Positions 845-60,316 of a stretch of DNA of 64,000 nucleotides are shown one piece after another. The stretch lies in assembly GCA_951406725.2 (NCBI GenBank), contig OX597817.1:30504001-30568000 (forward strand), in the 5' to 3' direction. The notes below the pieces were generated by a model, which was given only the letters and a program-made list of their open reading frames with translations, ran no database searches and had not been told where the DNA came from. This stretch comes from Octopus vulgaris (Eukaryota). Position numbers and translations under genes: made by a program. Numbering within the stretch: position 1 is the first letter of the stretch; each line of letters begins with the position of its first letter.

Positions 845-849
<5 letters not shown>

Positions 850-1299
850 ATGAATATGGTACTTAACTTAGATGCACCAGAATTTTTTATGGTATTACCC
901 ATAAAATTATCTGGGGTGATTATAACCAAAATATAAGCAACAAGAATGGATCGGTAGTTTAGTACAATTGTTTCATACTATAACAATTTATTAAAGCTGC
1001 AAATATTACAGCAAATATAATGTTAAGTAATCTTCAGCTAATTTCATATAGGTTTTCCAAACATCTTAGAGAGTGTAAATATACTTATAAAGTTATAGAT
1101 GTGAGCTCCAGAAACTTGAAGCAAGAGCTCATATCTATAACTTTATAAGTATTTTTACACTCTCTAAGATGTTTGGAAAACCTATATGAAATTAGCTGAA
1201 GATTACTTAACATTATATTTGCTGTAATATTTGCAGCTTTAATAGATTGATATAGTATGAAACTAAACTACCGATCCATTCTTGTTGCTTATTTTTTGG

Positions 1300-1300
<1 letters not shown>
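845..1300 (-). mobile_element. Palindromic hammerhead-bearing insert in (TA)n, probably a Penelope-like pLTR derivative
   Basis: Inverted arms ~925-1108 and 1125-1300 with a 16-nt loop, a short hairpin at 875-918, (TA)n on both sides and hammerhead cores in the arms. Confidence 0.75.
959..1041 (-). ncRNA. Type I hammerhead ribozyme (palindromic stem III)
   Basis: Minus strand: ttag-CTGAAGA-[ttacttaaca...tgttatagtat]-GAAA-CAATTG-TA-ctaa. Stem I is ttag/ctaa, stem III is the ACAATTGT palindrome, the site is GUA. The 10.1-11.1 pair is non-canonical (U.U). Confidence 0.7.
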
Positions 1301-2950: not shown

Positions 2951-3356
2951 CAGGGTGGGGAAGCAAAATTTACAAAGAAGGTTAAGTTGTTTTTTCTCAG
3001 CGTGTACTAAGTCAATTGTTTTGAAACCTAACATATATTGATGTCATAATCATACCTAACACTATTATCCTTACCTTTTCAGAAACTTTTGCCCATATGA
3101 GTAATCAGGAAAGCAAACCGTCAAAGAGTGTGATTTGCTGAAGCACTCATCACACCAAAGGAGATTTCAAAAATAGTTGGAGTGTCCATAAAGACTGTTT
3201 ACAATGTAAAGAATAGAATGACTATGAACAACACTATTACAGGGAAGTCTGGAAGTGGAGGAATCAACAAAAAACACACCAAAGCTTTTATTAAAGCTCT
3301 CAAATCCAAAATCCGAAAGGCTCCAACCAAATCCATGAGAAAAATGGCAATTGAAC
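2951..3356 (+). mobile_element. Tc1/maT(DD37D)-like transposon 5' fragment (TIR plus N-terminal HTH)
   Basis: ta|cagggtgggg start; EISKIVGVSIKTVYNVK...KSGSGG...IRKAPTKSMRKMAIE is a paired HTH-like region. Confidence 0.7.
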
Positions 3357-4126
3357 ACAGAGTTCCGCATGCTTTAATTGACAACAACAAGAATCATCGA
3401 GCCACAATCTCCGCTGGTTTGCTTGCTCGTCACCGCTCAACTCATGGACACAAGCAGAGATTTCTTTACCGAATCGTTACTGGCGACGAGAATTGGTGCC
3501 TGTACATCAATATGAAGCAGCGTAAGGAATGGCTTAGCTCGGTAAGCAAGCGACACCACGCGTGAAACATGATCTTCATCCGCGTAAAACGATGTTGTGC
3601 GTATGGTAGGACTGGGAAGGGATTATCCGTGACGAATTGCTTGAACGGAACCAAACAGTCAACGCGGAACTCTATGTTCAACAGATAGAACGACTCAACA
3701 CGGCTATTCAAGAGAAAAGACCTAATCGGCAATATGGAGTTCTTCTGCAGTACGACAATGTTCGCCCTCATATCGCCAATATGATCAAGGAAACCATTCA
3801 AACGCATGGCTGAGAAGTGCTGCTCCACTCACCGTACTCTCCTGGTTTGGCACCAACGGATTTCCACTTCTTTCGATCTCTTTCAAATGCTATACATAGA
3901 GTTTCGTTCAATACTGATGCAGAATTAAGAGCTTGGTTGGATCAATTTTTCGAGTCGAAATCGGGTGATTTCTACAAACGAGATATTGAAAATCTTGTTG
4001 AACGTTGGGAAAAAGTTGTAAACAACAAAGATGAATACATTATTGATTGATTAGTTGTTATTTTTTATTAAACCTTTAAACAAATTTTAATTTAAAAAAA
4101 CGGTGAAAACTTAGTTGCCAACTCAA
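3357..4126 (+). pseudogene. Mariner (DD34D) transposase pseudogene, C-terminal two-thirds plus right TIR
   Basis: VPHAL, RIVTGDENWCLY, LHPRKTMLCVW, YDNVRPH, HSPYSPGLAPTDFHFFRSL and WEKVVNNKDEYIID motifs with stops/frameshifts; TIR ...cttagttgccaactcaa|ta. Confidence 0.92.
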
Positions 4127-21754: not shown

Positions 21755-21868
<114 letters not shown>

Positions 21869-22077
21869 TGTGAAATAGAAAGATGAATAATCTTGTAGTA
21901 GATTAATCAAAAGATTAACCGATACCTTAGTAGCAAAAATCACAGCAGTAAAACAGCACGGTTGGAGGTACAACCATATGGTGTTGCAACCGTGCGTTGG
22001 TGCGGATAATTGAAATTAGAACATTATTGGTGAATTGAAGAAATGGAGCTGAACGCAGATTGAACAGAAATCGTTTT

Positions 22078-22169
22078 ATTTCATTCTACACGTGTTTCGA
22101 AAGGCACAAATTACCAAAATCCGATGGAATAATGGGACCATATTGTGTCTTTCTCTTCAGGAAGAAAAT
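22078..22169 (-). ncRNA. Type I hammerhead ribozyme (mirror copy)
   Basis: Exact reverse complement of 22551-22642. Confidence 0.8.
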
Positions 22170-22550
22170 AGGAAATCCGTTGGAAAAACAAAAACAGAAC
22201 AGAGGCGGAGCAAAAACAAATCGAACTATGCTCCTAAGAGCCCATGGCGAAACTGTTTATCAGTGTATGTTGAGAACCGGTGGCTGAAGAATTCAACGGG
22301 TCAGGCATCGGTCAATCATGTGGGTGAGGGGGCGTAGATGTTCTTTGTGACCGAGAATAAAGTTCTCGGTCACAAAGAACATCTACGCCCCCTCACCCAC
22401 ATGATTGACCGATGCCTGACCCGTTGAATTCTTCAGCCACCGGTTCTCAACATACACTGATAAACAGTTTCGCCATGGGCTCTTAGGAGCATAGTTCGAT
22501 TTGTTTTTGCTCCGCCTCTGTTCTGTTTTTGTTTTTCCAACGGATTTCCT

Positions 22551-22642
22551 ATTTTCTTCCTGAAGAGAAAGACACAATATGGTCCCATTATTCCATCGGA
22601 TTTTGGTAATTTGTGCCTTTCGAAACACGTGTAGAATGAAAT
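22551..22642 (+). ncRNA. Type I hammerhead ribozyme
   Basis: attttcttc-CTGAAGA-Gaaagacacaa...ttgtgcctttC-GAAA-CACGTG-TA-gaatgaaat. Full core, G10.1-C11.1, long stem II, palindromic stem III ACACGTGT, GUA cleavage after 22633; stem I has 8 of 9 positions paired. Confidence 0.82.
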
Positions 22643-23361
22643 AAAACGATTTCTGTTCAATCTGCGTTCAGCTCCATTTCTTCAATTCACCAATAATGTT
22701 ATATATATATATATATATATATACATATATATATACATACATATGTGTATGTATGTATGTGTGTGTATGTGTGCATGTGTGTGTATACTAGCTCAGGTAT
22801 CTTTAGTCATACAGATAAGTTACATGCAAATCAAAAAGTGAAGGGAAAATCTATTATTTAATATTTGCAGGTTTTCTTACAAATTGCAAGATGTTTCATC
22901 TAAAGCAAAAAAAGAAAATAAAGCACAGAAAAGCTGATGATTCTACCTGCAGCTTTGCTGTTTTCTAGGTGAAGCATTTTGCAAATTATAAGTAAAATTT
23001 GAAATACAATTGAATATACATATGCATATATGCACATATGTGCATATACAATTATGCATGTATATATGGTTGCATATGCATGTATGCACAGTAAAAGATG
23101 GGTGACAAAGCAAAAGAATGTAAAAAAAGACTGAATGATAATTTCGAAAAGAATTATTTGCTTAGCACTCAAAGAAATGGAAGTAGTTAATTATGACATT
23201 TCAGAAAATCGGTGTAGAGTGGGAAAAGGAACGAAAGACAAGGGAAAAAATTAAAAGAGCAATCGAGGTGAAAATACCTATGTGATCTTGTGTCTCAATA
23301 CACACCCAAACTGTCACTCACGAATAAAATATGGTCTCTCTCTCTTTCTCACATGAACACA

Positions 23362-26926: not shown

Positions 26927-27173
26927 GGTGGCCAATGACTACCTATTCTACTAAAATTACAGATGTAAAGTCTTCCTTTCATGGCCTTCCTTGATGACAA
27001 AAATTTACAAGCAAGACCAAAACTCCACCTGAATATTGAACGTATGTATTTTCCTCATCAACAGCAGCATTATCTTTTCATCCATCCATTTATCAATGCT
27101 TGGAATAGGCTAACAAAGTTTTAGCAAATAAAACTCTTCACCAATTATGGCAATTATCTATCCTCACCTTTGT

Positions 27174-28231
27174 GAGGTTCAGCCTCTTCAGAATAGCCTT
27201 CACCAAGTGTTTTTTCCAAACATTTCTCTTCTGCATGACCCTTCCAATCAGATCACTTGGCATTTCTTTGCCCAGCTGTCATCCTCCATATACAGCAGAG
27301 TCCATACAGTACAATTGCCTTTCTTCCATATTACAGCTGATTTCTTTCATAGCCAATATTTATTCTGTCATTCAAGTCCAGAAACAAACAATAGGATGAT
27401 TAAGCCAGTCATACTCATATATTTCCTTCCTTCTAATCTCCATACATCTATTATATCCAATGTCTGTTTCACTCATATATATATAAGCATAGACCACTTT
27501 TTGTTGATGGCAAAAATAATAGCTTGTATGATTTTTTCCATCCATCCTCTCTCTTCTTACTCTGAGCATTATACCTTAAAGCACCTACTTCATCTTACAT
27601 AACAGAAAAATGTGTGCTCATTTTGCTACGTCAGAGGTTGTCGGCCAGACCAGTGGTCAGATTGAGCTGAAAATTGACACAATTATGGCATAGAAGGCGT
27701 GATGGTTCAGCCTCTTCAGAATAGCCTTCACCAAGTGTTTTTTTCCAAACATTTCTCCATCTGCATGACCCTTCCAATCAGATCACTTGGCATTTCTTTG
27801 CCCAGCTGTCATCCTCCATATACAGCAGAGTCCATACAGTACAATTGCCTTTCATTGCATATTACAGCTGATTTCTTTCATAGCCAATATTTATTCTGTC
27901 ATTCAAGTCCAGAAACAAACAATAGGATGATTAAGCCAGTCATACTCATATATTTCCTTCCTTCTAATCTCCATACATCTATTATATCCAATGTCTGTTT
28001 CACTCATATATATATAAGCATAGACCACTTTTTGTTGATGGCAAAAATAATAGCTTGTATGATTTTTTCCATCCATCCTCTCTCTTCTTACTCTGAGCAT
28101 TATACCTTAAAGCACCTACTTCATCTTACATAACAGAAAAATGTGTGCTCATTTTGCTACGTCAGAGGTTGTCGGCCAGACCAGTGGTCAGATTGAGCTG
28201 AAAATTGACACAGGCATAGAAGGCGTGATGG
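27174..28231. repeat. Near-identical tandem duplication, period ~531 bp
   Basis: ORFs 27372-27569 and 27903-28100 are identical; only a few small differences between the copies. Confidence 0.95.
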
Positions 28232-48389: not shown

Positions 48390-48705
48390 GAGGTGTTGTG
48401 GAGAGAAGACAGGAGAAAACTTAATCTTATCTCATAAAAATTTTCATGTTTTATCTGAAATGGTGAAATGAATATGGACTCGCTCAGATATTTGTTTTAA
48501 TTGTTGAAAGAAGCAAAAATGTTACTAATTGATACCCTTCTTAATACTGACCACACACTCATACATTTTTGTAGGATAGCTACTATTTAGTTTGCTGGTA
48601 TTTACTGAATATATATTTTAATCTATAAAAGCACCAACCGATCGTGGCCGTTTGCCAGCCTCCTCTAGCCCCTGTGCCGGTGGCACATAAAAAACAACCA
48701 ATACA
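48390..48705. repeat. Left arm of a ~315-bp inverted duplication (partner 49851-50165)
   Basis: Base-by-base reverse-complement match with few mismatches. Confidence 0.92.
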
Positions 48706-49850: not shown

Positions 49851-50165
49851 TGTAGTGGGTGTTTTTTATGTGCCACTGGCACAGGGGCTAGAGGAGGCTG
49901 GCAAACGGCCACAATCGGTTGGTGCTTTTATAGATTAAAATATATATTCAGTAAATACCAGCAAACTAAATAGTAGCTATCCTACAAAAATGTATGAGTG
50001 TGTGGTCAGTATTAAGAAGGGTATCAATTAGTAACTTTTTTGCTCTTTCAACAATTAAAACAAATATCTGAGCGAGTCCATATTCATTTCACCATTTCAG
50101 ATAAAACATGAAAATTTTTATGAGATAAGATTAAGTTTTCTCCTGTCTTCTCTCTAAAACACCTC
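49851..50165. repeat. Right arm of the inverted duplication of 48390-48705
   Basis: Reverse-complement match. Confidence 0.92.
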
Positions 50166-53757: not shown

Positions 53758-54272
53758 TATGTTTGACTTTTGCTTTATATTTGTACAAGTTGGCTCCAAG
53801 TCTCACCCAGAGACCTCAAGAGACAACAGGGTTGGAAGTTCATGTTGTTGTTATGCCTAGTGTGCCATATATTTGGGGGGTGGGGATGTTGTACTCATGA
53901 ATGTCTAAAAAAAAAAAAAGTTTTTTTTTTTTTTTTTTTAAACCGAAAATTATGTTTGTTTTAAACCTTGAGATTACATAGAGAGTATTTTGCGTAGGAT
54001 ATGAGCAGTTCCCTTGAGCACTATCTTTTGAACTTCTGCCATTTTTGGGTTTCCTGGTATCTGAGTTAGGTAGCTATCAGCCCCTTTTGCTATCATTCCC
54101 AGGGCACCTATGACAACAGGTATTGTTTTAGTCTTCAGCTTCCACATTTTGCTGATTTCTATTTCAAGATCTTTATATTTGCTCAGTTTTTGGTAGGTCT
54201 TGACAGATACGTTTATATCGATTGGGACAGTCATATCAATGAGGAGGCATGTTCTTTGTTTGAAGTCTTTCA
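53756..54272 (-). mobile_element. R4/Dong-like RLE 3' fragment, copy 2 (different subfamily)
   Basis: CLLIDMTVPIDINVSVKTYQKLSKYKDLEIEISKMW...IPVVIGALG...VQKIVLKGTAHILRKIL; flanked by (TAA)n. Confidence 0.88.
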
Positions 54273-54273
54273 A

Positions 54274-54330
<57 letters not shown>

Positions 54331-54615
54331 CATTATTATTATTATCATTATTATTATTATGTGGGCTGATTGAACCATTAGAGTATCAGAAAGAATATCC
54401 TGTGACATATGTTCCAACTCTTTACGTTCTGTGTTCATATTCCATTGAGATCAACTTTGCATTTTATTCCTTTGGGATCATTAAAATAAATTACTAGTGA
54501 AGTACTGTGGGTGGATGGTATTGACTAATTCCCACCCTCATAATTGCTGGCCTTCTATATAAGTGTGTGGGCATGCATGCATGCACATGTGTGTGTTACT
54601 GCTGGCAAACATGTG

Positions 54616-56535: not shown

Positions 56536-57694
56536 ATCATTGTAGCTTTGTTGCTTAGCCCAAGGCAAATACTGATTGATAAGAGTTATGGTTACAGGAT
56601 TCTAACTGCGGCCACCCAGTCTGCTTAATAAATATAGTGTAATCAGAATATTAATATCCATTATTTACTTCAGAGGGAGGTGGTCCCCATTTTTTTCCAT
56701 TCATGATCAGCTATACCTGATTTATCAATATCTCCTCGTGTCACAGCTTTGCAATATCCCTGTGCCCTTATTTTGATGGGGCAGCATTTCGCCTTTGTAT
56801 AACCTACCACTGCTGCATGGGATGGAGTACATGCAGTCTTTGGTCATATTCTCTTCTATTGGTGGTTTTATTCGAAGGAGATATTTCCAAATTGTTGTTT
56901 TACTCTTGAATACTGTCCTGATCTTATATGGGCTGCATATCTTTTGAATCTTTTCGGAGAGGCTTTCACATAGGGTAGACAGACAGGCCATCCATATACC
57001 GCAGCCAATCTTCACAGAACAATACCTCAACTTTAATTCCCACCATCCATACAGTGTAAAGAGAGGGATTTCTCAGTGCCTAAAACATTGAGCAAAGTCT
57101 ACAAGTAGCGATCCTGATACACACCAAGAAGAAATTATCAAGCTGAGTAACAATCCATTAAGCAACAACTACCCAAAAACATACAATCCTCTCCAATTAT
57201 TAAGAAAAGAGAGGATGAAACCCATAAACTGACCACTGTCTGTCTACACTATGTGAAAGGCCTCTCTGAAAAGATACAAAAGATACGCAGTCCATATGAC
57301 ATCAGGACAGTATTCAAGAGTAATACAACACTTCACAAATATCTCCTTCGAGTAAAACTACCAATAGAAGAGAATATGACCAAAGACTGTGTGTTCTCCA
57401 TCCCATGCAGCTGTGGCTGGTTATACAAAGGCAAAACATGCTGCCCCCTCAAAATAATGGTAGAGGAACATCTCAAAGCTGTGACACGAGGAGATATTGA
57501 TAAATTGGGTATAGCTGATCATGTATGGAAAAAACAAAACACAAAAACTAAAAGAAGCAGCACATATGCTAGGACATAATAACCTCCTAAGCAGACCTAG
57601 TGCAGATATGTGTAGCATATGGGAACTGGTATGAAGGAAGGATTGGAAAATATAAAATTTATAAACCCTAAAATTCACTCCATAATTGCCCACA

Positions 57695-57835: not shown

Positions 57836-57881
57836 GACACCTGATGAAGGCTGGAGAGTATATCAGCCAAAACATTGTGTT
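57836..57881 (+). ncRNA. Minimal hammerhead ribozyme, inactivated copy
   Basis: gacac-CTGATGA-aggctg..cagcc-aAAA-CaTT-gtgtt; two CpG>CpA changes relative to the 60234-60279 copy. Confidence 0.65.
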
Positions 57882-60145: not shown

Positions 60146-60316
60146 CAGTTCTATATTTGAGAGATGAGGAATTATGTACATTATTTACATTATTTACATT
60201 TGACAGATATTTGTCCTCATCTTGTTTGTTGTTAGCACAACGTTTCGGCTGATATACCCTCCAGCCTTCATCAGGTGTCTTGGGGAGATTTTGAACCTGG
60301 GTTCTTATTCCCAGGT
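60146..60316 (-). mobile_element. Solo PLE pLTR fragment (same family as 57797-57960)
   Basis: Reverse-complement match to 57797-57960. Confidence 0.88.
60234..60279 (-). ncRNA. Minimal type I hammerhead ribozyme
   Basis: gacac-CTGATGA-aggctg-gagggtatat-cagcc-GAAA-CG-TT-gtgct; ACGT palindromic stem III. Confidence 0.72.

Follow-up and report, generated by a model that had tools for sequence, protein, structure and literature searches.

The palindrome at positions 846-1300 of the window, by which we mean the whole 64-kb stretch of DNA analysed here, is best read as the two likely 5'-truncated pLTRs of a Penelope-like element (PLE), joined head to head within a (TA)n tract, one of which has lost 8 nt of a hammerhead ribozyme motif through a neutral microhomology deletion in a dead copy. 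We put the probability of this reading at approximately 0.7. That the locus belongs to the PLEs in the first place is, judging from its architecture, very probable; the assignment is made indirectly because the locus carries no coding sequence and no other copy of its family was reached.

Architecture of the palindrome

The features of the locus, with the evidence for each, are as follows.

784-845, no strand: left (TA)n tract, the presumed insertion target (TRF, 31 copies, 100%)
846-925, minus strand: 3' tail of the left arm, absent from the right arm (fold z -2.09, 7 of 200 shuffles)
877-914, minus strand: 13-bp stem-loop within the tail (z -4.11, 0 of 200 shuffles, for a stretch picked post hoc)
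926-1108, minus strand: left arm, with the element sense on the minus strand (arm alignment)
959-1041, minus strand: putative intact minimal hammerhead motif of type I (sequence, descriptor, constrained fold)
962-971, minus strand: span of the three registers of the deletion (arm alignment; AC...AC microhomology)
1103-1130, no strand: inverted junction GAGCTC-N16-GAGCTC, with its loop at 1109-1124 (sequence and alignment)
1125-1299, plus strand: right arm, with the element sense on the plus strand, stopping at the point where TATA in the long arm coincides with the TA tract
1192-1266, plus strand: broken hammerhead, with helix III and the GUA site gone and the junction near 1262/1263
1301-1354, no strand: right (TA)n tract (TRF, 27 copies, 100%)

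Aligning the two arms with each other bears out the original prediction of inverted arms of about 180 bp (left 926-1108, right 1125-1299) around a 16-nt loop (1109-1124). What that description overlooked is the tail of approximately 80 nt at 846-925, which sits on the left arm only and has no counterpart on the right. Over 180 aligned positions the arms show 6 substitutions (1101/1132, 1080/1153, 988/1245, 983/1250, 932/1293 and 925/1300), in keeping with the earlier count of about six, and the right arm has a single 8-nt gap. The divergence between the arms is 3.3%, versus 0 of 341 positions in another palindrome at 22017-22703, and the claim that this is a real, diverged palindrome holds up. 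The two palindromes are also unrelated in sequence, as had been stated (local score 41, the best of 200 shuffles reaching 42). Both arms open with GAGCTC, adjoining the loop; palindromic hexamers occupy 4 of the 178 hexamer positions of the arm, and one such hexamer is the one that begins it. The two sense copies face away from the central junction, and each terminates in TA repeats; one of them bears the tail, whose stem-loop at 877-914 may be a candidate protein-binding or initiation element.

The hammerhead motif

Hammerhead numbering and core motifs are used here in their customary sense. Read along the minus strand, the left arm has TTAG at 1041-1038, CTGAAGA at 1037-1031, a 56-nt linker, GAAA at 974-971, CAATTG at 970-965, TA at 964-963 and CTAA at 962-959, just as the motif had been written out before (ttag-CTGAAGA...GAAA-CAATTG-TA-ctaa). 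In hammerhead terms, helix I has 4 bp, CUGAAGA and GAAA flank a long helix II with a U.U at its base, and helix III has 2 bp and a palindromic AAUU loop; the cut is predicted to fall after GUA, between 963 and 962 of the minus strand. The type I order of the core (CUGANGA, GAAA, NUH) is present in the minus arm at 1037-963, while the plus arm lacks the NUH. Taken together, the letters support a hammerhead-type motif on the minus strand. A strict descriptor (CTGANGA, GAAA, a palindromic hexamer, TH and a helix I of at least 3 bp) has three matches in the window, namely this motif and both arms of 22017-22703, and none in 300 block-wise dinucleotide shuffles of the window, a null that is favourable since the descriptor was devised after the motif had been seen.

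In folding, the 56-nt linker forms a long helix II (z -2.76; 4 of 200 shuffles were equally good), and helices I (4 bp), II (long) and III (2 bp) can all pair. The stability of the 83-nt motif as a whole is not significant (z -1.49, 13 of 200 shuffles), its lowest-energy fold differs from the hammerhead, and the hammerhead fold lies 5.0 kcal/mol above the monomer ensemble. The palindromic helix III loop, ACAAUUGU, has a predicted self-duplex energy of -6.4 kcal/mol, which would permit dimers. The G10.1-C11.1 pair, common although not universal among hammerheads, is missing, with U.U in its place. Neither this motif nor the three other intact hammerhead motifs of the window were matched by the Rfam hammerhead models at gathering or E-value thresholds. 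Matches to Rfam microRNA models, all below gathering scores, reflect hairpins and microsatellites and were set aside.

Judged by its sequence, the unusual feature of the motif is the long helix II. Our comparison of this helix covers 26 Hydra-clade rows and the row of PLE-X1_sMoe, within a literature that has many more hammerheads in the supplements of PMC4209133 and PMC7229834. Within this set, a U.U at the base of helix II (U after CUGANGA, U before GAAA) occurs in 14 of the 26 Hydra-clade rows (File S2 of PMC8557442), so the U.U at 959-1041, which looks like damage, is natural. The linker, on the other hand, is more than twice as long as the longest among the 26 (26 nt; PMC8557442), and a precedent of approximately 54 nt is found in the spike-moss row, PLE-X1_sMoe, of the same paper. 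With the minimal type I hammerheads described from metazoan PLEs (PMC4209133) the motif shares the CUGANGA/GAAA/GUH core, the 4-bp helix I, the short helix III with its palindromic loop and the occurrence in opposite-strand pairs, but it lacks their usual G10.1-C11.1 and its helix II is much longer. The axolotl hammerhead HHR_Amex2 (PMC7229834) likewise combines a 2-bp helix III and tetraloop with a U.U at the base of helix II; this motif of the non-LTR retrozymes is reported there as weak as a monomer and better as a dimer.

Related loci in the window

The palindrome at 22017-22703 also lies in (TA)n and has identical arms of 341 nt around a 5-nt loop, with intact hammerhead motifs on both arms, a 55-nt linker and a CACGTG helix III. 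Its left arm carries a structured tail of 150 nt (z -3.8), so that the whole element spans 21867-22703; it is either very young or an assembly fold-back. On sequence, then, a long helix II is common to two unrelated families in one genome (linkers of 56 and 55 nt). A further inverted pair of the same layout, 88% identical (56691-56986/57236-57534), encodes the end of a PLE-type protein: the proteins that its translation matches have RT domains and, by look-alikes, GIY-YIG domains, and a PDB search with the frame at 57151 gave no matches. This pair is followed by a stretch that looks tRNA-like by eye and then by a short hammerhead at 57841 (region to 57960). The latter, on the plus strand, shows two CG-to-CA changes relative to an intact relative at 60274, as neutral CpG decay would give. 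The relative is a second copy of this short hammerhead type at 60146-60311 on the minus strand, with an intact core at 60274-60239 and no adjoining ORF seen.

The deletion in the right arm

The arm alignment shows, as had been noticed, that the plus-strand copy lacks 8 nt comprising stem III and the GUA site. The original prediction went further and took the loss to be exactly that of the cleavage module, CAATTGTA; the 8-nt loss is real, but this is just one of three equivalent registers (ACAATTGT, CAATTGTA and AATTGTAC), flanked by AC...AC microhomology. ACAATTGT is the sole perfect 8-nt palindrome in the arm. A1250 in the right arm also disrupts a helix II pair, and the clustering of two substitutions near the deletion looks unremarkable. 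How readily would a deletion of this size strike the ribozyme by chance? Among 119 distinct 8-nt deletion alleles, 25 (21%) affect the core or helix I and 5 take out part of GUA; when only the 11 alleles with at least 2 nt of microhomology are considered, the corresponding numbers are 4 and 1. Chance inactivation of the ribozyme is therefore not rare. Of the two explanations offered at the outset, a chance microhomology deletion is the one that finds support, given the flanking AC repeats and the three registers. What is more, PLE copies are often disabled by microhomology deletions (PMC3846280).

Probable origin as the end of a Penelope-like element

The traits that suggest a PLE are the inverted copy joined head to head, the one-sided 3' tail, the pLTR hammerhead and the (TA)n target. 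PLE insertions have been described as carrying a 5'-truncated copy in inverted orientation and a tail at one of their ends and as preferring (TA)n (PMC8557442), with head-to-head inversions whose junction palindromes were read as signs of self-priming (PMC3846280), and with minimal hammerheads on opposite strands, 100-700 bp apart (PMC4209133); two start sites of reverse transcription define the tail, and both strands are cleaved (PMC11167929). In particular, the endonuclease-bearing, (TA)n-targeting PLEs of the Hydra and Neptune clades share with the locus the head-to-head arms, the tail on one arm, the (TA)n target, a hammerhead near the 3' end and a palindrome at the junction (PMC8557442; PMC3846280). 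They differ from it in that no ORF is found here and in that the tail is approximately 80 nt, as opposed to the 30-40 nt usually reported for PLEs. Two comparisons of the consensus files of PMC8557442 with six k-mers of the window each gave no relevant match, line breaks in those files being able to hide matches. The cephalopod Naiads have the (TA)n target, inverted copies and tails in common with the locus, but are described in PMC8557442 as being without canonical hammerheads. An origin from a Naiad was rejected, since visual comparison with the ends of Naiad_Obim and Naiad_Ovul showed no resemblance.

A tblastn search revealed no RT or endonuclease sequence in 846-1300, which is expected for pieces truncated to less than 300 nt. 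No further copies of the family turned up in the 64-kb window, in bacterial and archaeal genomes (searched with an exact, gapped 24-base pattern) or in phages. One 35-nt plasmid match was judged to be due to chance.

Reading the locus as a PLE end, one can picture its formation as follows. The element protein would nick the TA tract, copy the RNA from its 3' end and stop after approximately 280 nt, leaving the arms presumably 5'-truncated. The second arm would then arise either by fold-back at GAGCTC-N16-GAGCTC or by a second priming at an inner start site. Since a fold-back copy cannot outrun its template, the short, deletion-bearing right arm would, in the case of fold-back, have been copied from DNA. 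Within the parent element, cleavage by the ribozyme would probably be weak and would improve in a dimer, as is reported for related motifs (PMC4209133; PMC7229834; PMC6765202).

Alternative explanations

A different account of the missing 8 nt is that they mark a cleavage scar, i.e. that the RNA was cut after GUA and then bridged, so that the right arm was born without them. Namely, the reverse transcriptase could have left the 3' product, whose first nucleotide is C, and landed on the C of GAAAC in the 5' product, or a ligase could have rejoined trimmed ends. The appeal of this idea is that the predicted scissile bond coincides exactly with the end of one register, an ending possible for just 2 of the 119 8-nt alleles and for 34 of 2012 alleles of 4-20 nt (1.7%); moreover, RtcB efficiently ligates hammerhead-cleaved retrozyme RNA in vitro (PMC7229834). 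Nevertheless, this is a single event, noticed after the fact, and such an ending is not as rare once only deletions with microhomology are counted, being open to 2 of 11 alleles of 8 nt and to 7 of 186 of 4-20 nt. The idea also conflicts with fold-back, in which the short arm, copied from cDNA, never met cleaved RNA, and for an Anolis PLE uncleaved RNA is reported as the main template, with no reads ending at the cut site (PMC11167929). We consider both the scar and the bridging route behind it unlikely.

The second explanation originally offered, that the deletion was fixed by selection against cutting a plus-strand host transcript, is poorly supported: the ribozyme is predicted to be sequestered, and no host gene was identified. 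Whichever strand is transcribed, the complement of the ribozyme-sense arm is made first, and the arm is then predicted to be sequestered; RNA that runs through the whole palindrome is predicted to lock the ribozyme into a hairpin of approximately 175 bp. In the folding model, the cost of adopting the hammerhead fold rises from +5.0 kcal/mol for the motif alone to +8.9 in one arm and +86.6 in the whole minus-strand palindrome, and on the plus strand CUGAAGA is predicted to pair with the left arm (p = 1.0) at all five nascent lengths; these are equilibrium predictions, and editing or proteins could open the hairpin. There is, furthermore, one sense copy per strand and no tandem partner for a dimer, and motifs of this class are reported to be weak as monomers. 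In favour of some activity, the axolotl motif with the same 2-bp helix III, tetraloop and U.U cleaves to 22% as a monomer in 1 h (PMC7229834), so a motif like that at 959-1041 need not be inert.

Is there a host transcript to be protected? The plus strand has an intron-like signal at 172-251 (GTAAGT, TACTAAC at 207-213, a pyrimidine tract and CTAG), and of the window's six TACTAAC sites only one is preceded by a donor of this kind at a distance of up to 45 nt. In addition, retrozymes are depleted from Xenopus introns and exons (bioRxiv 10.64898/2026.07.22.740005). Against this, no host protein was found. Pfam was searched with ORFs of at least 45 aa that passed a complexity filter, and 7 of 416 had matches at E <= 0.01, only one of which, a transposase piece, lay above the cut-off; the scan is an insensitive one, which left out shorter and low-complexity frames, missed the real PLE piece at 57151 and could miss short exons. 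As for individual frames, the only match of the one at 1-162 is a tandem-repeat ORF, the one at 3-119 has Atlas scores of at most 0.81, and the frames tried upstream of the intron-like signal gave no protein match. No strand skew was seen either. Dead hammerheads number 2 of 3 on the plus strand and 0 of 3 on the minus strand, which leans towards the selection idea and is non-significant (Fisher p 0.4 two-sided, 0.2 one-sided), in a tally of six loci (three from the strict descriptor, one from a relaxed descriptor, two by homology) whose pairs are not independent. An intact plus-strand hammerhead sits at 22560. Among the titles and beginnings of abstracts that we covered, which included few subscription papers, no report of strand-biased loss or of cut-site deletions in PLE hammerheads was found. 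All in all, selection of this kind appears very unlikely.

It is just as improbable that the locus is not a PLE end at all, but a retrozyme monomer or another repeat that was folded back during DNA repair, or else an assembly fold-back artefact. Such a reading would sit well with the fact that no coding sequence, Rfam match or family copy was seen. However, the locus is not in tandem units, and its one-sided tail and flanking TA tracts recur in the unrelated element at 21867-22703; a fold-back read artefact, in turn, would hardly contain six substitutions and a deletion outside a homopolymer. Retrozymes consist of tandem repeats of 170-400 nt (PMC7229834), whereas the locus is inverted and single. 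A non-LTR retrozyme was accordingly rejected, no head-to-tail tandem array being present apart from the (TA)n.

Finally, the arms could have been copied from two family members, one of a deletion-bearing subfamily, in which case neither the substitutions nor the deletion would date the locus, and although PLE hammerheads vary highly within one genome (PMC4209133) and the PLE protein is predicted to act as a dimer on both strands (PMC11167929), the identical arms of 22017-22703 (341/341) suggest that arms start out identical, and the palindromic hexamer at the beginning of the arm fits self-priming, which leaves this the least probable of the explanations.

Other features of the window

In its repeat content the DNA resembles that of an octopus, and several further repeats were observed. 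Short direct repeats at 315-624 (315-419/425-529 at 78%, TTGTTACAA units at 556-623) are possibly the subterminal repeats of a DNA transposon, an imperfect palindrome of 250 bp at 2230-2477 (71%) is MITE-like, and 3134-3810 on the plus strand is a transposase remnant of the Mariner/Tc1 type (Pfam Transposase_1, E 2e-8). A near-identical tandem duplication of approximately 530 bp at 27132-28133 was seen as repeated ORF translations. At 48390-48705 and 49851-50165, a 316-bp inverted duplication, 97% identical, surrounds 1.1 kb of SINE-rich DNA; no hammerhead was found in it, and it is either a recent inversion or an assembly feature. The minus-strand frame at 53977-54450, without a Pfam match, resembles what we take to be the C-terminal end of a non-LTR retrotransposon with a restriction-like endonuclease.

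Implications

If the locus is what we consider most probable, it is a decaying transposon end and carries little wider weight. More generally, a PLE insertion of the head-to-head type should keep its own ribozyme silent in read-through RNA and form long double-stranded RNA instead, which makes such insertions ill suited to testing for selection on cleavage. The long helix II, for its part, is a variant that escapes both short-helix descriptors and the Rfam models. Were the cleavage scar to be true instead, the missing 8 nt would be a fossil of hammerhead cleavage in vivo, and deletions that repeatedly stop at the scissile bond would give direct evidence from genomes that the hammerheads of PLEs cut in the course of the transposition cycle. 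The role of the hammerhead in PLEs is described as unresolved in PMC8557442 and PMC11167929; if the deletions of many copies ended at the cut site, this question would become testable from genomes alone.
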